DNA of 15,120 nt from a virus (Duplodnaviria > Heunggongvirae > Uroviricota > Caudoviricetes), in the IMG/VR virus record IMGVR_UViG_2713896902_000007, positions 1 through 15,120 of that record; one strand, given 5' to 3'. Below the pieces are notes generated by a model. That model worked only from the letters and a program-made list of their open reading frames with translations. It ran no database searches and was not told the origin of the DNA. The translations under genes and the position numbers were made by a program. Below, one piece after another: positions 1 through 9,695 of the stretch. Numbering within the stretch: the stretch's first letter is position 1; each line of letters starts with the position of its first letter.

Positions 1-555
1 ATGCTTATTGGCTATGTACGTGTGTCAACAAATGACCAGAACACAGATCTACAACGTAATGCGCTGAACTGTGCAGGATGCGAGCTGATTTTTGAAGACA
101 AGATAAGCGGTACAAAGTCCGAAAGGCCGGGACTGAAAAAACTGCTCAGGACATTATCGGCAGGTGACACTCTGGTTGTCTGGAAGCTGGATCGGCTGGG
201 GCGTAGTATGCGGCATCTGGTCATTCTGGTTGAGGAGTTGCGCGAACGTGGCGTTAATTTTCGCAGCCTGACGGATGCTATTGATACCAGCACACCGATG
301 GGGCGTTTTTTCTTTCATATGATGGGTGCCCTGGCTGAAATGGAACGAGAACTGATTGTTGAACGAACAAAAGCTGGACTGGAAGCTGCTCGCGCACAGG
401 GACGAATTGGTGGACGTCGTCCCAAACTTACACCAGAACAATGGGCACAAGCCGGAAGATTAATTGCAGCAGGAACTCCTCGCCAGAAGGTGGCGATTAT
501 CTATGATGTGGGTGTATCGACTTTGTATAAGAAGTTTCCGGTCGGAGATAAATGA
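1..555 (+). CDS. Serine recombinase / DNA invertase (Hin/Gin/Pin/Cin family), apparently full length
   Basis: 184-aa ORF starting MLIGYVRVSTNDQNTDLQ (catalytic-serine N-terminus typical of the family), resolvase-like core, C-terminal HTH (GVSTLYKKF). Length fits the ~185-195 aa of these invertases. The ATG is base 1 of the window, so promoter and any crossover site upstream are unseen. Confidence 0.9.
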   Translation: MLIGYVRVSTNDQNTDLQRNALNCAGCELIFEDKISGTKSERPGLKKLLRTLSAGDTLVVWKLDRLGRSMRHLVILVEELRERGVNFRSLTDAIDTSTPMGRFFFHMMGALAEMERELIVERTKAGLEAARAQGRIGGRRPKLTPEQWAQAGRLIAAGTPRQKVAIIYDVGVSTLYKKFPVGDK

Positions 556-593
556 AACCGTAGCACGTCGTATGCAAGATCGTGCTGCGGTTT
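554..593 (+). terminator. Stem-loop immediately after the invertase stop codon (putative terminator)
   Basis: aaaccgtagcacg (558-570) pairs with cgtgctgcggttt (581-593) as a 13-bp stem (one G-U wobble) around a 10-nt loop, starting 2 nt after the TGA; the downstream run is only moderately U-rich. Confidence 0.35.
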
Positions 594-612
594 ATGCTTA
601 TCACTTAAAGAC

Positions 613-1482
<870 letters not shown>

Positions 1483-1572
1483 CTAACCCTTTGAATTTAC
1501 ATAGCGCAAAAAGATACCTTTCCTCATAATGTGAGCTAATTTTATGTTTCGTTTGATGATTGGACCGGTCTC

Positions 1573-1597
1573 GAAAACCGTAGGCACGTAGTATGCG
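1573..1597. repeat. Imperfect ~25-bp direct copy of the invertase 3' flank
   Basis: gaaaaccgtaggcacgtagtatgcg (1573-1597) closely matches gaaaccgtagcacgtcgtatgcaag (554-578); a ccggtc motif precedes both (537-542 and 1565-1570). The two copies bracket the GIY-YIG gene. Confidence 0.4.
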
Positions 1598-1788
1598 TTA
1601 ATTTATGAACAAACTACTTGTCTGCTGTTTTTCTGTCATTAGTCGTATATAGAATGATTCTCTATGCCTAACAAAGCATCACCAGTGCTAGATTACGTTG
1701 TAGTCACTGTTTAAATATCCAGATAAAACATTTCCTTCTGGGTTGAATGAGTGATAGAGTTTCACCCATTAGACCCCTTGGAGGAATT

Positions 1789-3222
1789 ATGTCTGAATTT
1801 GAAGTGTTGGCACAGCATCTGCTGAAGGAAGCCGAGGCGGAAGAAAAGCTGCGACAGGAAAATGATAAAAAGCTTATCGAGAAAGTGCTGGAAATCTATG
1901 ATCAGAAGTATGTGGCTGAATTACTGAGAAAAGTCGGAAAAAATGAGTGGAGCCGTGAAACCATTAACCGCTGGATTAATGGCAAGTGTTTACCAAAATC
2001 GTTGACTTCAGTAGAAGAGTCTCTTCTGCGTAAGATGCTACCAGAACCACCTGCAAACCATCCGGAATATGCTTTCCGCTTCATTGACTTATTTGCTGGA
2101 ATTGGAGGGATACGGAAAGGTTTTGAGGCCATTGGAGGCCAGTGTGTTTTTACCAGTGAATGGAATAAAGATGCTGTGCGTACATACAAGGCCAACTGGT
2201 TTAACGATGAACAGGTGCATAAATTCAATCTCGATATTCGGGAAGTCACGCTGAGTGATAAAACCGATGTATTGGAAACGGATGCTTATGCATATATTGA
2301 TGAGCATGTGCCGGATCATGATGTGCTTCTTGCGGGGTTCCCGTGCCAGCCATTTAGCCTTGCTGGTGTTAGTAAGAAAAACTCACTTGGTCGTGCGCAT
2401 GGTTTTGAATGTGAAGCACAAGGAACACTTTTTTTTGACGTGGCACGTATTATACGAGCAAAAAAACCGGCAATTTTTGTGCTGGAAAATGTCAAAAATC
2501 TGAAGAGCCATGATAAGGGTAAAACTTTCAAAGTCATTATGGAGACCCTTGACGAGCTGGGCTACGAAGTTGCCGATGCTGCAGAAATGGGAAAAAACGA
2601 TCCAAAGATTATCGATGGGAAGCATTTTTTGCCTCAGCATCGTGAACGCATTGTTCTGGTCGGATTTAGACGAGATCTGAATATTCACAAGGGGTTTACC
2701 TTGCGTGATATCAGTCGTTTTTATCCGGAACACCGCCCATCATTTGGTGAATTGCTGGAGCCTGTAGTCGATAGTAAATATATACTTACGCCAAAACTAT
2801 GGGAGTACCTTTATAACTACGCCAAAAAGCATGCAGCCAAGGGGAATGGTTTTGGCTTTGGGTTGGTCAATCCTGAGAATAAGGAAAGCATTGCACGCAC
2901 ACTTTCTGCCAGATATCACAAAGACGGATCAGAAATTCTTATTGATCGTGGTTGGGATATGGCAACGGGAGAGGCTGACTTTATGAATGAGAGTAACCAG
3001 GCTCGTCGACCACGCAGGCTGACTCCCCGAGAGTGCGCACGCCTTATGGGGTTTGAAAAACCTGGAGGGAAACCATTCCGTATTCCGGTTTCAGATACTC
3101 AGTCATATCGGCAGTTCGGTAACTCCGTTGTGGTGCCAGTATTTGAAGCCGTTGCCAGACTTCTGGAACCCTATATCCTCAAAGCTGTTTCTGCTGATGC
3201 TGGTAAGACTGGGCAGCCTTGA
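1789..3222 (+). CDS. ecoRIIM: DNA cytosine-5 methyltransferase, Dcm / M.EcoRII family (CCWGG expected)
   Basis: Collinear with E. coli Dcm / M.EcoRII as I recall them: [14 protein letters not shown] (AdoMet motif I), [11 protein letters not shown] (catalytic PC motif), ENVKNL, C-terminal QFGNSV. Preferred start is ATG 1789 (GGAGG at 1780-1784, 4-nt spacer), giving 477 aa; the track start at 1747 has no obvious SD. Confidence 0.9.
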
Positions 3223-3228
3223 GAACAC

Positions 3229-3251
3229 CTCCCGGCCTTTTAAGCCGGGAG
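3229..3251. terminator. Hairpin between the convergent M and R genes
   Basis: ctcccggc (3229-3236) / gccgggag (3244-3251), 8-bp stem with a 7-nt loop, lying in the 34-bp gap between the two stop codons. No clear U-tract on either side. Confidence 0.3.
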
Positions 3252-3256
3252 TCAGC

Positions 3257-4465
3257 CTATGATAGTTCAGCGTAAAGTTCTATCAGCTCAGTAATGAATG
3301 CTCCGAGCGTTATTAATTCTTCTCTAACTGCTTCTGGGTATTTTTTATGTAAAGTTGATGGTACAACGAGTCTGACACCCGCATCTTTCATTTCTCGGTA
3401 TTGTGCTGAAGAAACACCTTCTTGCAGCGTAAATAAATGTACCTGATGGATTTTATTTGCTTCATTCAGTATCTGACGCCAGCGATCTTTGCAGGTGGTC
3501 TTTACTGCCAGCATACGTAAGTTTTCTACAGGAAATTCAACGTTATGATATGCCTCTGCTGAAGGAAACAGGAAATCTGGTTTTTTATTACCTTCAGTAA
3601 CTGCCTGAGTGGAGAAATGCCGTAGTCCGTGCTCGATAAAAAGCTTCTCTAGGTGAAGTTCAAGTGATTTACCTGCCCTTGATTTACGTCGATTACTGAC
3701 AGAGTTGGCTAATGCAATAAACTCATCTACAGAATCGAATCCTTTCTTAATAATATCAAGAACATGTAATTCCTCGACGAGTAGAAAAATATCATACTCG
3801 ACACGCCGACGGTCAATCAGTTGCTCATCTGGATCCTTGGAGTTTTTAGCATAATGGCCAGCAGCATATTGAATAATTTCGTTTCCAGAAGGAAAACGCT
3901 TCTTCCAGTCTTCAGGAATAACATATTTATGATTTACTGGAGTTTGCTGAAGAGACAATCCGCCCAAAATTTGTCCGGCAGGGCCGGAAATTAGGGTTCC
4001 AGGTATGATTTCGCCAATAGCAGACTCGATGATATCCTCTTCATCGGGATTGACGCAGACCCATATATCTACCTCGGAACAGTCAGTGTTCTGTTCGTTT
4101 AACCTGAAGGCAAGAATTGTGAGGGCTCCTGTATTTTCAGGGTTCTGTAATGGACTTCCTCTCCCCCAGCGCGTAATTCTTTTTTCGTTTCGGGTCTTAC
4201 CAAAATAACGGTTGTTGTAATAAATTGCGCGTGCTTGGGTATCAGGGCAATCATGGGATGATACATGCGCAGTAAGGAAGACTGAAGGGTTCAGTTCGCG
4301 AGTATGATTGATAGATGGAAAAAGCTTTTCAACGATATTTGAGGGGATATAAAGTCCGACCTGATGGCCACCTGTTGCGCCTGTGTCGTTTGCAGAAAGG
4401 CGTTTGATGTAGATAAAGTAATTCCCGCTTGCGATATCAAGCAGCCAGTTATGAAAAACCGACAT
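3257..4465 (-). CDS. ecoRIIR: Type IIE restriction endonuclease, R.EcoRII-like
   Basis: Translation MSVFHNWLLDIA...KRLSANDTGATGGHQVGLYIPS... matches my recollection of R.EcoRII (N-terminal effector domain plus C-terminal catalytic domain) along its length. It is convergent with the Dcm-like methyltransferase, as in the EcoRII system. Start preferred at the second ATG (4465; AAGGG 6 nt upstream); 4471 is the alternative. Confidence 0.85.
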   Translation of the reverse strand: MSVFHNWLLDIASGNYFIYIKRLSANDTGATGGHQVGLYIPSNIVEKLFPSINHTRELNPSVFLTAHVSSHDCPDTQARAIYYNNRYFGKTRNEKRITRWGRGSPLQNPENTGALTILAFRLNEQNTDCSEVDIWVCVNPDEEDIIESAIGEIIPGTLISGPAGQILGGLSLQQTPVNHKYVIPEDWKKRFPSGNEIIQYAAGHYAKNSKDPDEQLIDRRRVEYDIFLLVEELHVLDIIKKGFDSVDEFIALANSVSNRRKSRAGKSLELHLEKLFIEHGLRHFSTQAVTEGNKKPDFLFPSAEAYHNVEFPVENLRMLAVKTTCKDRWRQILNEANKIHQVHLFTLQEGVSSAQYREMKDAGVRLVVPSTLHKKYPEAVREELITLGAFITELIELYAELS

Positions 4466-4540
4466 ATACATCCCTTTGTTAACATACAGTCAGGGTTAAC
4501 ATTTTTCCATAGTTATAGATAAGCGGCTAGGAACTTAAGG

Positions 4541-4573
4541 GAAAAACAAAAAACCCGCATAAGCGGGCTTTTG
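4541..4573. terminator. Short GC hairpin flanked by A-run and T-run (possible bidirectional terminator)
   Basis: cccgc-ataa-gcggg (4554-4567), followed by cttttgtg on the plus strand and preceded by gaaaaacaaaaaa (a U-run when read on the minus strand). Lies between the R gene start and the crr-like repeats. Confidence 0.35.
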
Positions 4574-4856
4574 TGTCACTCGAGAGCCGCGGCTCCTTTG
4601 CGTATCCTTTTTTGTCTCCTCACCGTCTGGTCGGTGTCCTGCTGAGACTGCTAACTTCCTGTTTTTGTTGGTGTTGTCCTTACACCGTCCAATCATGATT
4701 GGTGGGCTGGCGGAGTTTGAATAAATATTATATTGCTTTGATTTTTAACGATTTTGTTTAATTCAGTTTTTGTGCGTATACCTAATCGTATACCAATGGC
4801 TGTAAGTTAATGTGAAATGAAAGCGCATTTTTACTTGGATTGATGCTATATCGTAC

Positions 4857-5164
4857 AGGAAAAAAATTTTTTTTCGAAAGAACTGTTCACACTGTTCACC
4901 CTTTGATTTTATCCTTTTATTTCAGAGTGATAGGTGGTTAATAATGGGTGAAGGGTGAACATTCGATTCTTCACCTCCGGCATTCTGCCGGTGTGACTCA
5001 TACCGGTGATTAATCCCCCGTACTGAAAATCGCACAGGGAGAAAAAAGTTTTTTTTGATTTGATTGTTCACACTGTTCACATTTCGTTTTTCTCTTTTAA
5101 TTTCAGTGTGATAACGAGTGAATATACGGTGAAGGGTGAACAGTGGATTGTTCACCTTCGGGGG
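4857..5164. repeat. crr-like cis replication region: two ~125-bp direct repeats carrying TGTTCAC(C) iterons
   Basis: Repeat 1 is 4857-4980, repeat 2 is 5037-5164, with a 56-bp spacer. Each contains tgttcacactgttcac plus inverted ggtgaaca/tgttcacc copies. This matches the described architecture of P4 crr (two 120-bp repeats about 60 bp apart, type I iterons bound by alpha), and it lies just downstream of the alpha gene. Confidence 0.7.
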
Positions 5165-5173
5165 ATGTCGGGA

Positions 5174-5200
5174 TAAAAAAAAGACCGGCAGATGCCGGTC
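5174..5200 (-). terminator. Rho-independent terminator downstream of alpha
   Basis: On the minus strand: hairpin gaccggca-tctg-ccggtc (5183-5200 on plus) followed by a U8 run (A-run 5174-5182 on plus), about 8 nt after the alpha stop codon. Confidence 0.55.
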
Positions 5201-5207
5201 AGGTGGG

Positions 5208-7541
5208 TCAGGTTGTTGCAGGGTCGTCACATTTTGGCAGCCAGTCGCCGTAGCTTTCCTCTTTCAGTGTCAGGTTGGTCTGTATCCCCTGTTTGGTATG
5301 GCGCTTCTCGTAATTCAGTCCGTATTCCTTCAGCATCACCGGCAGCCCCAGTCCGAACATTTTCAGACTGAGTACGTTCCGGTAGCCGTTTGCCTCCATG
5401 TAGGCCAGATAGGCGTGATAGAGGTATTTACGGTAATTACGCGGGATGATACTGGCGTTCCCCATATACATGCCGCTGGTCTGCGGCAGGGTTTCCAGAT
5501 AGCCGATAAAATCAAACGTCGGGTCGGCATCCCGTTTGATGTTCAGCGCCTCGTCTGAGTTCTGCTGGGACTGAAGCAGTGACCGGGCGAGCATCGGGTC
5601 GCTGAACTTCTGCATCAGGTGACGCACGATGACCGCCAGCTCGCGGGTGATTTTGTCCTTAAGCTGCGGGTCGCGCTCCTGCGGGGCTATCTGTTCCGGG
5701 AAGTGAATAATCACCCGCCGGCGTGACACGCCGCCGCTGCGGTCGGTGAAGCGCATCGGGTTATTGTTCACGGCCAGAATCACCGCCGGGATATGCGTGG
5801 AGTATGCATCCCGGTATTTCGGGTCAACGGACACCGCATCGCCGCCGGTGATGGCCTTGAGTCCGGCACCGTCGCCGCTCCATTTTTCCTGGTCCGGCAG
5901 GCGTATCAGTGAGAAGCCAGTTAACGCGGCACGTTCACGCGGGGATTCCAGCGTCTCAATGGTGGCCGACGTGGCGTTATCCTCCCCGGCCAGCAGGGTG
6001 GCTATTTCGGCCATGATACTTTTGCCGCTGCCGCCGGGACCGGTCACCTCCAGAAAGAGCTGCCAGTCGTAGCGGTTTGCCAGCACCATAAACAGTGCGG
6101 CCAGAATCACGTCGCGTTTTTCCGCACGGCCACCGGCGGCACGGTCAAGCCAGCGCCAGAACGCGGGGGCGTGGGTTTCCAGCGTTTCCCCTTCCACCGG
6201 CGGGGTGAAATCCACATCGCACAGGGTACGCATCCAGTGTGACGGACTGTGCGGGTGGAACGTGCCGTTCTGTGTGTCGAGCACGCCGTTACGAAAGCCA
6301 ATCAGGCGGCGGGAGGGGGCTTCCTGCTGCGGAATAATCAGCTTCAGGGTGTCCACCACGGAGGCCACCTTCCCGGAGGAGAACGGCGCGCGCAGACGCT
6401 GAAACAGCCCGGCCACATCCCGGGCAAAGTCCTGTGGCGGCAGCACCTTCCAGACACCATTTTCATAACGGGACAGAAGCTGGCCGTTGGCATCGACCGC
6501 GAGCGCCTCGCCGTAATGCTCATAGATACGCATGGCCTTTTCGCTGGTACTCATGGCGGAAAACTCCGCTTCGCTCATGGTGTCGAACGGGCTTTCAGCC
6601 GGTGGCCGGATGGCATCGTAAATGGCCTTACGGGTGGCTTCCCCGCCGTACTGCGTGAAGGCATCATTCCAGTCACCGAAGACCGGCGGCAGGGCAACAA
6701 CACCTTCACACGCATCTGCGGCTGCGGCGGCTTTTTTCTGGCCGTCACCGCTGAGGTCACGGTCTGCGGCAAGGACAATCTGACAGGCCGGATGCTTCTG
6801 CCGGGCAAGGCTGGCCAGAGAAAGGAGGTTCACGGAAGAAAGCGCCACCATCACCGTTTCACCGGTCAGGTGATGTACGGTAAGTGCGGTCGCGTATCCC
6901 TCCGCTATCCACAGACGTTTTCCGGCCTGATTCTGTCCTTCAAGGATGTGACAGGTGCCCCTGACCTGCCCGCCTTTCAGGGTGCGCTTACGGCCGTCAG
7001 CGCTGATTAACTGAAGGTTAACCAGTTCGCCGCTGTCGTCATACAGTGGCACCACAAGGTCACCGGCGCGCCAGCTCACGCCACCGGCTCTGTGTGTGCC
7101 GGTCAGCATCCGGCATTCCCGGCCGGGAAAGCCCTTGCGGGTCAGGTAGGCGTTACCGGTTCCGGTACGGGTTTTCGCCATCAGGGTTTGTGCCAGTGCG
7201 GCGGCGTTCTTCCGGGCAGCGTCTGTTTCAGCACCGGCGGCGGCCGTCACTGCCGGGTCAGCCGGGGGCAGGCTGCCGGTCACGGCAGCCACCTTTGTGG
7301 CCGCGTCGGACGGGGAGACACCAAACACCTTTTCAACCAGTTTCAGGCCGTCACCGGCACCACACTGATTGCAGTACCAGGTGCCGCGCCCCTCCCTGTC
7401 ATCAAAACGGAAGCGGTCACTCCCGCCACAGACCGGACAGGGCTGATGACGGTTCTTCAGCACCTGAATCCCCAGCGCCGGGAGAATACGCGGCCAGTGG
7501 CCGAGCGCATGGCTGACGGTGGCGGTTACGTTCATTTTCAT
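5208..7541 (-). CDS. alpha: P4 alpha-like primase-helicase (replication initiator)
   Basis: 777-aa ORF (the length of P4 alpha). N-terminal zinc-finger primase signature CPVCGG...CNQCG, Walker A-like GPGGSGKS in the helicase part. AAGGAG lies 9 nt upstream of the ATG. Flanked by crr downstream and iterons 4.9 kb upstream. Confidence 0.9.
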   Translation of the reverse strand: MKMNVTATVSHALGHWPRILPALGIQVLKNRHQPCPVCGGSDRFRFDDREGRGTWYCNQCGAGDGLKLVEKVFGVSPSDAATKVAAVTGSLPPADPAVTAAAGAETDAARKNAAALAQTLMAKTRTGTGNAYLTRKGFPGRECRMLTGTHRAGGVSWRAGDLVVPLYDDSGELVNLQLISADGRKRTLKGGQVRGTCHILEGQNQAGKRLWIAEGYATALTVHHLTGETVMVALSSVNLLSLASLARQKHPACQIVLAADRDLSGDGQKKAAAAADACEGVVALPPVFGDWNDAFTQYGGEATRKAIYDAIRPPAESPFDTMSEAEFSAMSTSEKAMRIYEHYGEALAVDANGQLLSRYENGVWKVLPPQDFARDVAGLFQRLRAPFSSGKVASVVDTLKLIIPQQEAPSRRLIGFRNGVLDTQNGTFHPHSPSHWMRTLCDVDFTPPVEGETLETHAPAFWRWLDRAAGGRAEKRDVILAALFMVLANRYDWQLFLEVTGPGGSGKSIMAEIATLLAGEDNATSATIETLESPRERAALTGFSLIRLPDQEKWSGDGAGLKAITGGDAVSVDPKYRDAYSTHIPAVILAVNNNPMRFTDRSGGVSRRRVIIHFPEQIAPQERDPQLKDKITRELAVIVRHLMQKFSDPMLARSLLQSQQNSDEALNIKRDADPTFDFIGYLETLPQTSGMYMGNASIIPRNYRKYLYHAYLAYMEANGYRNVLSLKMFGLGLPVMLKEYGLNYEKRHTKQGIQTNLTLKEESYGDWLPKCDDPATT

Positions 7542-7555
7542 GGTGTTGTTCTCCT

Positions 7556-7876
7556 TCAGTGCAGTACCGGCGCTTTTATGTGACGGGCACAGAGTTCATC
7601 CATCACAACCAGCCCGAGAAAGGACAGCGACGGCGCGGCCTTCAGGGGGCCGGATTCCATTAAATCTTCCAGCAGGGCACAGGCTATCTGACGCCCTTTT
7701 TCCTCACCGTGCTGGCGCAGATAAAAGCCTTCCAGCTCAGCGGCGATGGCCGCCTCCAGTGACTCAAGGGTGAGATGCGGGTAGCGGTGCTGACGTTCGC
7801 ACACGGTCAGCCAGGCACAGGCGACAGCGCGACGGTAAAGGGCAGCGCGTAAGACGGGCGGTAAGGGTGTTTTCAT
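7556..7876 (-). CDS. cnr: Small protein immediately upstream of alpha (P4 cnr-like by position and size)
   Basis: 106-aa ORF with SD GGGAGG 7 nt upstream; it occupies the position of the P4 copy-number regulator. Assignment is by synteny and length only. Confidence 0.5.
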
Positions 7877-8011
7877 TTGCTTTCCTCCCTGTGACAGATG
7901 ACTGCATTCCGTGCCGGTTGCATTAACTGATAAGGCATATCTGCGTCTCCTGAAGACGTGCGTATCCCTGCGCGAATACGCACATTTAATTTTTCGGGTG
8001 TCGTTTTTTAA

Positions 8012-8467
8012 TTACAGATAATTGCGGTAACTGTTATCCGGGGTGATTTCCGGGTCAGGCTCCGTGCGGGGAATTTCCCGCCATTCCCGCGCCACCGGTG
8101 CCGCCCGGCTGGCCGGAACAGGGTCCTGCGGGTAAATATCCAGATATTTCTCCCGCCATTTCTGTAATTCCGGGTCTCCGGCCATTTCTTTCAGTACCGC
8201 ATGCCGGTTTACGGGGCTGCGTCTGAACAGGTCAGGACGGTCACAGGTAAATTCCCGCAAAAAACGCCCCAGCGGGATGTCTGTGGTGCGCCCGTCAGCG
8301 AGGATACGCACAAGGATACTGAATTTACGGCGGTACGGGTTCCAGACAATGTCCGGGCAGCGGTACGGCATTTCCCACGGAATACCGTCTTCCAGAATGC
8401 CGACCACGGCCACATCGGGAAAACCGGCAGAACGGTAAATCTCACCGGGCTGGGGAAAATCAAACAT
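8012..8467 (-). CDS. P4 orf151-like hypothetical protein
   Basis: 151-aa ORF in the expected position of the left operon; its start overlaps the end of the preceding gene by 8 bp (8460-8467). Confidence 0.55.
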   Translation of the reverse strand: MFDFPQPGEIYRSAGFPDVAVVGILEDGIPWEMPYRCPDIVWNPYRRKFSILVRILADGRTTDIPLGRFLREFTCDRPDLFRRSPVNRHAVLKEMAGDPELQKWREKYLDIYPQDPVPASRAAPVAREWREIPRTEPDPEITPDNSYRNYL

Positions 8468-8747
8468 GCGTCCTGTCTCCCCGGTCTTTCTGCTGGGCGA
8501 GAAAATCGCGGCACAGGCCTTTGGCTTTCAGCTCATTCAGCACAAAATCAATATCTTCATTCAGGTAACTGAAAATATGCGGAATGTAGAGCTGATGCAG
8601 GCCGGAGAGTTCACGGTGAATCAAATCACCCCCAACAAACTGGGATACGGCGCTGGCGCGGTTGAGCTTATGGTAAGCCTCAATGCTGAGGTGTTCACGG
8701 GCGTCATGACGCGCTGAGACGGTCTGAGGGGCTTTTTTATTACGCAC
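8460..8747 (-). CDS. epsilon: P4 epsilon-like protein (putative helper-prophage derepressor)
   Basis: 95-aa ORF with a GTG start at 8747 (GGGGG 6 nt upstream), syntenic with P4 epsilon. Identity is inferred from position and size; I cannot verify the sequence from memory. Confidence 0.45.
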
Positions 8748-8937
8748 GGGACACCCCCATCACCGGCAGACGGGCAGCAAGGGAGAGCACATAGTCACGG
8801 ACAAGGGAACGGCGGGCACTGCGTTCATCACCGGCGACGGTGCGAAGCATGCAGATACGGGGATGACGGTCTGCGCGACGGACAGCGGCAAACACAAAGA
8901 CAAATTCAGGGTGTGAGGGGGTAAGGGTTGTAGCCAT
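8740..8937 (-). CDS. Small ORF (65 aa) with a strong SD, first gene after the immunity-like leader (kil-like by position)
   Basis: ATG at 8935-8937 preceded on the minus strand by AAGGAGG with a 7-nt spacer; stop at 8740-8742, 3 bp from the epsilon-like GTG. In the track it is the in-frame 3' part of the 211-aa ORF 8740..9375, whose upstream part I consider non-coding. Confidence 0.25.
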
Positions 8938-8939
8938 AA

Positions 8940-9232
8940 GGCAGCCTCCTTCGAGTAGCAAATAACTGCTATCGCCGGAGTTCTCACGCTCGATGGCGAT
9001 AGCCCAGACGGGGGTGAGAATACCGGCCTCGAAGAATACCGGCCAGCCCGGAGGCTGCCCCGCCTGAGCTACCATTGACTCAGTGGCATAACATGTGATT
9101 GCGAACAGGATCATACCTGCACGGCAAACCACACGCCACACCATAATCTGGCGCTCTGTGGCGTTGATTGCGACACAAAAAAAGACGCATGGCGCGTCAT
9201 ATGTCGCCTTCGAGTTACACGGGTTCTCACGC
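8940..9232 (-). promoter_or_regulatory. Putative P4-type RNA immunity leader (seqA/seqB/seqC-like complementary elements)
   Basis: Direct repeats ccttcgagt ... gttctcacgc occur at 9207-9232 and 8947-8989. Between them, 9012-9034 (gggtgagaataccggcctcgaag) is complementary to both. 9050-9059 (ggaggctgcc) is the reverse complement of 8940-8949, which overlaps the SD of the small ORF. Confidence 0.35.
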
Positions 9233-9326
9233 CCGGCTGCCGATTTTGCGGCAGCGGAAAAACTATATCCGCAAATGCCGGAAAAAGGCAAGCCAGAAAA
9301 AGGGAGTTTTTGCAGAACAGGCATCA

Positions 9327-9593
9327 TCATGCGTCGTACCCCCGTTTGCGTCCGGCAATGCGCCCGGCCATCCATGCAGTGACTTCAGAGTGCAGCCAGG
9401 CCACATTTTTACCGCCAAGACTCACCTGCGGCGGAAATTCCCCCTTACGGATGAGTTCATAGATGGTCGAGCGTGACAGGCCGCACAGGTGCATCACTTC
9501 CGGCAGACGTAAAAAACGCTCCTGCGTGATGTCCGGCAGCGGAATCAGTGGCGTTACAGGAGCGGGAGACGGGGAAGAAAAAACAGCTTGCAT
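9327..9593 (-). CDS. vis: Vis / AlpA-family DNA-binding regulator (excision and late-control protein)
   Basis: 88 aa, with the characteristic AlpA HTH: [26 protein letters not shown]...NVAW...EVTAWM. It is the first gene of the leftward operon, facing the iteron cluster. Confidence 0.8.
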
Positions 9594-9695
9594 CGGGCTA
9601 CCTCGTTAATGTCCATACAGCACCGGATAAGTCCGTCCGGCTTCGGGTAGCGCTTTATTTTGTGAATATTTTCAGCAGACGCAACAGGGGGGATT

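Follow-up and report, generated by a model that had tools for sequence, protein, structure and literature searches.

This report concerns the leftward leader between the genes vis and epsilon (positions 8940-9232) in a stretch of 15,120 nucleotides of Caudoviricetes DNA (IMG/VR record IMGVR_UViG_2713896902_000007, positions 1 to 15,120), the whole of which is referred to as the window. We are highly confident that this locus is the lysogeny-maintenance switch of a P4-like satellite prophage, orthologous to the PLE-seqA-cI-seqC-kil/eta region of P4 and bearing a specificity allele other than that of P4. The P4 immunity system, comprising PLE, seqA, cI (seqB), seqC, kil/eta and timm, was reportedly worked out by Ghisotti in 1992, Sabbattini in 1995, Forti in 1999 and 2002, and Briani in 2000. 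The system is already known and not new; its mechanism was established for P4 in the 1990s, and its RNA families are represented in Rfam.

Homology of the locus to the P4 immunity region

Positions 8600-9700 of the window are 94.6% identical to P4 (X51522, 8028-9137), within a longer homologous span in which P4 4291-11624 aligns with window 4861-12186 at 97.3% identity, covering the sequence near attP, alpha, epsilon, vis, ori, sid, delta and psu, to cos. The gene order in the window (vis, eta/kil, epsilon, orf151, orf106, alpha) is that of the P4 annotation and reproduces the synteny of the P4 left operon, with alpha intact at 777 aa. The initial annotation had placed the leader between vis and an epsilon-like gene, and protein family matches bear this out: vis (P4 orf88) is an AlpA-family regulator at 9327..9593 on the minus strand (Pfam Phage_AlpA, 74.2 bits), found where P4 has ORF88, and epsilon, at 8460-8747 on the same strand, belongs to the Derepression family (Pfam, 170 bits).

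Three structure-aware Rfam models match the minus strand of the leader above their gathering scores. The full-length C4 model matches 8992-9079 (74.3 bits against a gathering score of 45, E = 2.9e-13), isrK matches 9178-9255 (70.7 bits against 50) and c4-a1b1 matches 9216-9268 (50.4 bits against 46.7). C4 and IsrK are structural homologues of the P4 CI RNA and of seqA respectively (PMC3632133, PMC4825925), and in P4 the pairing of CI with seqA and seqC, which lie upstream and downstream of cI, leads to termination (PMC4825925).

The initial annotation had described a composite motif directly repeated at 9207-9232 and 8947-8989, with a central element at 9012-9034 complementary to both copies, and all three elements are present at those positions. 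Within the window CCTTCGAGT has two sites only, 8948-8956 and 9207-9215 (0.04 expected), as does GTTCTCACGC, at 8980-8989 and 9223-9232 (0.05 expected); a repeat search of the window returned both direct-repeat pairs. The central element (GGGTGAGAATACCGGCCTCGAAG on the plus strand) includes GTGAGAA and CTCGAAG, the reverse complements of TTCTCAC and CTTCGAG, which occur in both repeats. In RNA terms the seqB of the window can form a 7-bp and an 8-bp duplex with each target, and all three elements are perfectly cognate. Folding the minus-strand leader had been proposed as a check, and for 8925-9258 it yields a minimum energy of -157.2 kcal/mol against a mean of -121.4 for shuffled sequences (z = -5.6), far more stable than the shuffles, in a fold where the upstream repeat (seqA) is paired with the central element (seqB).

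A second proposed check, alignment to the cI, seqA, seqB and seqC region of P4, identifies the two loci as orthologous, and the differences between them cluster in three short blocks (seqA, seqB and seqC) that stay mutually complementary. The resemblance to P4 RNA-based immunity that had first been remarked upon is therefore that of the orthologous locus itself, given the 94.6% identity, the three Rfam families and the three-way compensatory variation described below. The region is also common in Escherichia coli, where 1048 of 5426 complete genomes contain similar sequence and 64 carry the same 381-nt region with an identity of 99% or above. Window 8900-9280 is matched at 100% identity by the immunity region of the E. 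coli H10 prophage. This prophage is located at tRNA-Sec (selC), which is also the integration site of phiR73.

Compensatory variation and immunity specificity

Relatives of the locus were collected in two overlapping sets, 81 loci by exact match to the 5' hairpin of CI and 120 stretches by a looser pattern of the CI framework. Among 43 aligned close relatives, 98.8% of cells are paired in seqA:seqB (80.9% when shuffled, 41-53% when the elements are slid against each other) and 99.5% in seqB:seqC (81.0% shuffled, 37-51% slid), and 9 of 15 pairs are altered on both sides in each of the two duplexes. One pair position is G-C in 29 and G-U in 14 of these relatives; as G-U is tolerated here where the other strand would have an A-C mismatch, the signature is one of RNA, and it fits pairing only with the minus strand as the RNA. 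The same pattern extends to 147 unique loci. Of these, 127 have upstream, and 124 downstream, an exact 7-mer complement of their own box 2', the segment of seqB that pairs with box 2 of the targets, compared with a rate of about 0.4% for other alleles, and the equivalent figures for box 1 are 144 upstream and 147 downstream, with non-cognate matches at 1.5% and 0.01%. These loci contain 27 variants of box 2 and 13 of box 1 in 48 combinations, which shows that the two boxes reassort. The shuffle control overstates significance, the loci being related, but the slid control and the reassortment speak for a genuine signal. Such three-way compensatory variation among relatives indicates that the complementarity of the three elements is under selection.

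Some relatives depart from this pattern. Two apparent recombinants, L079 (3702-4056) and L036 (8591-8945), have a seqA box 2 (in L036 also a box 1) that belongs to an allele other than that of their own seqB and seqC; their seqA pairing is partly lost while seqC is still cognate (compare window 9207-9214). In two further loci, L035 and L045, small deletions affect seqC box 2. These mismatched or deleted boxes may mark defective prophages, or the pairing of seqA box 2 may be dispensable.

Compared with P4, the changes in the window are concentrated in box 2. The P4 box-2 target UUCACAGG is replaced by CUCGAAGG in both seqA and seqC, so that three of the eight pairs are changed, and the P4 seqB sequence CCUGUGAA is replaced by UCUUCGAG, which contains the three complementary changes and a C-to-U change giving one G-U pair. 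Box 1 (GUGAGAA/UUCUCAC) is the same in both, the CI framework outside box 2' is identical to that of P4 CI, and the promoter, the seqA hairpins, the terminator and kil are identical or nearly so. The other differences are a 9-nt deletion in the spacer between seqA and CI and a +1/-1 pair of indels between CI and the start of kil.

Coordinated exchange of three of the eight box-2 positions in all three elements suggests a different immunity specificity. Cognate duplexes between seqB and its targets are about 6 kcal/mol more stable than cross pairs between the window and P4, a figure that compares the seqB segment alone and ignores intramolecular structure. Since box 2 differs, box 1 is kept and the cognate duplexes are the more stable, we predict, as a new inference, that cross-immunity with P4 would be reduced or absent. 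A broader proposition, which we put forward tentatively and would not yet favour over its negation, is that P4-like satellites use a combinatorial, two-box RNA address that defines many mutually heteroimmune groups; the window would then be an experimentally uncharacterised hybrid with the box 1 of P4 and a non-P4 box 2, partly cross-immune with P4, and eta would be kept open mainly for the sake of ribosomes that erase the RNA switch and not for its peptide.

RNA elements, overlapping genes and rival explanations

All elements of the leader lie on the minus strand. A putative constitutive promoter of the PLE type at 9262..9291 (-35 TTGCCT, 18-nt spacer, -10 TATAGT) lies within the eta open reading frame (ORF); it is the sole sigma-70-like match in 8650-9650, is identical to P4, and its -10 falls on the 'consensus -10 sequence' of the P4 record X02534. 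Downstream of it the seqA RNA, the upstream target (9178..9255), is defined by the isrK and c4-a1b1 matches and by its covariation with seqB, and has two 5' hairpins. Its box 1, GUGAGAA (9224-9230), occupies the loop of the second hairpin, and its box 2, CUCGAAGG (9207-9214), is predicted to be single-stranded immediately ahead of a predicted intrinsic-terminator hairpin that closes seqA (9184-9198); this hairpin is followed by a U7 tract, is the only terminator-like match on the stretch and is conserved with P4.

The CI RNA gene, matched by C4, spans 8992..9079 and has a cloverleaf-like fold of -48 kcal/mol on its own; the mature RNA probably lies within about 8998-9073, and record X02534 annotates a region of dyad symmetry that corresponds to CI. 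In P4 the CI RNA is 69 nt long and is processed by RNase P and PNPase, and termination sites t1, t4 and timm are distinguished. Within seqB, box 2' (UCUUCGAG, 9028-9035) is in the loop of the second CI hairpin and box 1' (UUCUCAC, 9014-9020) in the single-stranded stretch 3' of that hairpin. CI also contains a perfect 12-nt direct repeat, 9017-9028 and 9033-9044 (GGCCGGUAUUCU on the RNA strand), whose copies stand ahead of box 2' and box 1' and give both boxes the same opening context; in P4 CI the counterparts of the two copies differ at one position.

The downstream target, seqC (8948..8987), is complementary to seqB and covaries with it. Box 1 (GUGAGAA, 8981-8987) is recognised from its sequence, and box 2 (CUCGAAGG, 8948-8955) runs into the GGAGG of the kil ribosome-binding site (8945-8949), so that seqC overlaps the start region of kil. 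An alternative hairpin may form at 8968..9003 from a perfect 9-bp inverted repeat with arms GGCGAUAGC / GCUAUCGCC at 8995-9003 and 8968-8976. It would use the 3' strand of the CI closing stem, and hence be an alternative to that stem, and would hold seqC box 1 in its 18-nt loop. The support for it is modest: it is 100% paired in the 43 relatives, with two pairs altered on both sides, in four sequences.

By analogy with P4, the switch would operate as follows. The constitutive PLE, lying inside the eta ORF, would transcribe seqA, cI and seqC leftward, and the transcript would be processed, as in P4, to a small, stable CI RNA. This RNA would expose seqB, with box 2' in a hairpin loop and box 1' adjoining it, and seqB would pair with two bipartite targets on nascent PLE transcripts, seqA upstream, just ahead of the intrinsic terminator, and seqC downstream, where box 2 abuts the kil ribosome-binding site. 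If P4 is a guide, the pairing would cause premature termination and block translation of kil, the first gene that would be translated from PLE transcripts, and untranslated kil would in turn expose a Rho-dependent terminator within kil, leaving epsilon, orf151 and alpha (replication) switched off. On late transcripts from PLL, vis would be translated and then full-length eta through AUGA coupling; vis would thus be the first gene of the late transcript, translationally coupled to eta. Transcription from PLL would be insensitive to immunity because ribosomes translating vis and eta would cover the RNA elements. The RNA processing, termination sites, Rho dependence and trans-immunity in this scheme are drawn from the P4 literature.

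The initial annotation had also reported a 65-codon ORF starting at 8937 with a Shine-Dalgarno sequence, and this stands: by position and near-identity it is the homologue of P4 kil (8740..8937, minus strand; 65 aa, Icd-like, NCBIfam phage_ICD_like 76.1 bits). At its start the minus-strand RNA reads CUCGAAGGAGGCUGCCUUAUG, with the AUG at 8937-8935. A 10-nt complement covering the Shine-Dalgarno had been taken as the masking device, and the complement does exist: GGCAGCCUCC at 9050-9059, in the first hairpin of CI, is the perfect reverse complement of GGAGGCUGCC at 8940-8949, the kil ribosome-binding site and spacer on the minus strand. These are the sole two occurrences in the window, on opposite strands (0.04 expected). 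The complement is present in P4 too, 97.9% of cells pair in it among the 43 close relatives, and it is topologically compatible with the box-2 duplex, because its CI strand precedes box 2' and its target strand follows box 2.

We nevertheless consider it unlikely that this pairing is the main mask of the kil ribosome-binding site and a third selected interaction. No pair in it is altered on both sides in the 43 relatives, and in the Rfam structure five of the ten CI bases belong to the stem of hairpin 1. Where the CI hairpin differs, the target remains GGAGG(C/U)UGCC, a perfect match to the canonical hairpin, but against the locus's own hairpin it pairs at only 7.0 of 10 positions for GGCAGCCGAA (n=8), 8.0 for GGCCGACUUC (n=5) and 4.0 for GGGCGGAGCA (n=4). 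The stretch 8940-8949 is constrained in other ways as well, as ribosome-binding site, spacer and eta codons, and these roles probably account for its conservation. The 10-nt complement is therefore probably not a selected pairing, and for want of covariation it was rejected as a third functional interaction. Of the earlier claim the perfect complement survives and its masking role probably does not; masking would be better explained by the covarying box-2 duplex of seqB and seqC, which abuts or overlaps the site.

It is very unlikely that the window holds a decayed remnant, that is, a defective prophage with a non-functional immunity circuit. Many P4-like prophages of E. coli are cryptic, and boxes are mismatched or deleted in L035, L045, L079 and L036, but in the window the three elements are perfectly cognate, the promoter, terminator, CI, kil, eta, vis, epsilon and alpha (777 aa) are intact, and 64 complete E. 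coli genomes share the 381-nt region, each with an identity of 99% or above.

The leader is also coding sequence. A mechanical ORF reaches 9375 and has 211 codons, and the start of eta is probably the AUG at 9330-9328, sharing two bases with the vis stop UGA (9329-9327) in the sequence AUGA (9330-9327) and giving a protein of 196 aa at 8740..9330 on the minus strand. This ORF encloses PLE, seqA, CI, seqC and, in the same frame, kil. The deposited sequence of P4 has an annotated ORF of 137 aa across this region; that of the window is open for 196-211 aa. The NCBI annotation pipeline PGAP calls a 591-nt coding sequence (CDS) here in the E. coli H10 prophage, overlapping the upstream regulator gene by 4 nt, and names it 'Icd-like' from its C-terminal kil part only. 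Pfam Phage_ASH (PF10554) matches aa 37-158 of the 211-aa ORF (window 8902-9267) at 77.8 bits against a cut-off of 26. Of 141 unique relatives, 120 have no stop in the kil frame over at least 119 codons ahead of the kil AUG, the other two frames having 2-12 stops, and in most of the exceptions another frame is fully open. Nine divergent loci among the viral contigs (L084, L099, L114, L131, L144, L170, L111, L127 and L171) have 4-10 stops in the frame of the assumed kil AUG and none in another, so that either their kil starts elsewhere or their eta and kil are not nested in frame.

The 211-aa ORF is thus a real, conserved gene, P4 eta; that it is a spurious translation of an RNA gene was rejected in view of the open frame in divergent relatives and of the description of eta in the literature. 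In P4, Kil is a truncated Eta translated on read-through, and full-length Eta is made only from the upstream late promoter, coupled to an alpA homologue, its translation preventing termination (PMC10111431, citing Forti 1999). The initial annotation had set a conserved protein of 211 aa against the RNA model. A real eta leaves the RNA mechanism standing, since the RNA elements are contained in eta and the two coexist.

The opposite extreme, that the region is merely protein-coding (Ash/Eta, 196-211 aa) and that its repeats and complementarity are by-products with no RNA regulator, is highly improbable. It is favoured by the Phage_ASH match, by the frame that is open in most relatives where the others are rich in stops, and by the PGAP annotation. 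Coding constraint, though, leaves unexplained the complementary covariation of three segments, the tolerance of G-U on one strand only and three structure-aware Rfam matches above threshold. The Phage_ASH match covers exactly the seqA-CI-seqC leader, for which reason part of the conservation of the Ash family must reflect constraint at the RNA level. Closely related alleles are set apart by paired +1/-1 indels in the interval from CI to the start of kil; these restore the frame and alter the local peptide, which by inference suggests selection for translatability more than for that segment of the peptide. For P4, the equivalent immunity experiment, with an eta-frameshifted clone expressing CI RNA, has reportedly been done. 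RNA and protein functions coexist in the published account of P4 (PMC10111431).

Least credible of all is that the repeats are DNA operators bound by Vis, a repressor or another protein, since, for all that the adjoining vis encodes an AlpA-type DNA-binding protein and repeats near promoters are often operators, the relation that is kept is the complementarity of a central element to two flanks and not the identity of repeats to a common consensus, the G-U pair found in 14 of 43 relatives would be A-C on the other strand, an RNA-level signature, and the elements lie downstream of the promoter inside structured RNAs recognised by Rfam.

Several considerations weigh against an orthologous switch of altered specificity, the reading we prefer. 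Every functional step (the RNA, termination and immunity) is transferred from P4. The comparison loci were retrieved by their conserved CI framework and come mostly from related enterobacteria, making a sample that is neither independent nor unbiased. Pairing of seqA box 2 is not strictly kept everywhere, as a few relatives (L079 and L036) carry a non-matching seqA box 2. Finally, some cross-reaction with P4 may occur, as box 1 is identical and the difference in duplex energy takes no account of intramolecular structure.

Neighbouring genes and comparison with known systems

Other genes of the window lie outside the P4-homologous part, which begins at 4861. Just beyond it, at 1747-4471, is a restriction-modification pair of the EcoRII type, in which a C5 cytosine methylase (491 aa, plus strand) is convergent with an EcoRII endonuclease (404 aa, minus strand; Pfam EcoRII-N and EcoRII-C). 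A 274-aa GIY-YIG protein is encoded at 613-1437 on the minus strand, with an almost full-length PADLOC match to PD-T4-3 (464 bits), between the EcoRII system and a DNA invertase gene (1-555, 96% identical to a phage invertase). Together the GIY-YIG and EcoRII genes look like a small defence island beside the satellite. At the other end a 527-aa ORF (12294-13877, plus strand) sits between cos/psu and the integrase, in the slot held in P4 by gop, beta and cII. This ORF has no Pfam or NCBIfam match, and it matches the PADLOC candidate-defence model HEC-07 at 99 bits and NsnC more weakly; its position agrees with the defence hotspot described for P4-like satellites (PMC9122126). A P4-type tyrosine integrase (13927-15120, minus strand; Arm-DNA-bind_3, Phage_int_M and Phage_integrase) occupies the right end of the window. 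No tRNA gene was found in the window, and the integration site is not visible there.

As a discovery the locus carries little weight, its mechanism and RNA families being known and the region common in E. coli; as a positive control it shows that an antisense-RNA switch can be recognised by reading raw sequence. For annotation, the point is that the CDS called 'Ash' by Pfam and 'Icd-like' by PGAP overlies three RNA elements, and that the CDS and the RNAs are both real. The modular covariation of the boxes suggests that immunity types of P4-like satellites may be predictable from two short boxes, and typing of this kind bears on which satellites coexist with or exclude each other in a given host.

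Several known systems share the RNA core of the locus. In Gifsy-1 of Salmonella, the arrangement IsrK / STnc1160 - orf45 - anrP has its counterpart in the upstream element of the window, which matches the isrK model at 70.7 bits; P4 seqA has been called a structural homologue of IsrK, and STnc1160 has been suggested to correspond to CI (PMC4825925). The two differ in that IsrK is a small RNA acting in trans to activate translation of orf45-anrP (PMC4825925), whereas the upstream element of the window would be targeted by CI as part of a repressive circuit. Linear-plasmid prophages (N15, phiKO2 and PY54) have C4-like RNAs as well, in a different type of phage and among different genes, the RNA core alone being common. 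Window 8967-9275 has partial nucleotide matches at 76-82% identity to phiKO2, PY54 and related Klebsiella phages, and where the records are annotated these matches adjoin Icd-like or repressor genes.

The closest mechanistic parallel outside the satellites is the immI region of P1 and P7, in which, as Citron and Schuster are said to have described in 1990, an antisense RNA, c4, pairs through a' and b' with a1/b1 and a2/b2 and controls icd-ant. Shared with the window are the Rfam families C4 (RF01695) and c4-a1b1 (RF03163), a bipartite, two-box recognition with one set of targets upstream and one downstream, downstream targets that overlap the ribosome-binding site of an Icd-like gene, and specificity alleles that arise through compensatory changes. 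The cargo differs: in P1 and P7 it is the antirepressor ant, and in the window it is epsilon and the replication genes. No ant-like gene was seen after kil in the window, where epsilon (Derepression family) is followed by orf151 and alpha, and because no ant gene follows the Icd-like gene the locus, which would work like immI, is not a member of it. Unlike immI, moreover, a locus of the P4 type lies inside the eta ORF and is bypassed from PLL.

All the defining features of P4 immunity that a sequence allows one to examine are present in the locus. The P4-like retronphage phiR73 is reportedly heteroimmune to P4 through changes in seqA, seqB and seqC, as published by Sabbattini in Virology in 1996. 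In passing, no retron was noticed in the E. coli H10 prophage or in the window. What phiR73 and the window would have in common is an immunity specificity set by coordinated changes in three complementary elements.

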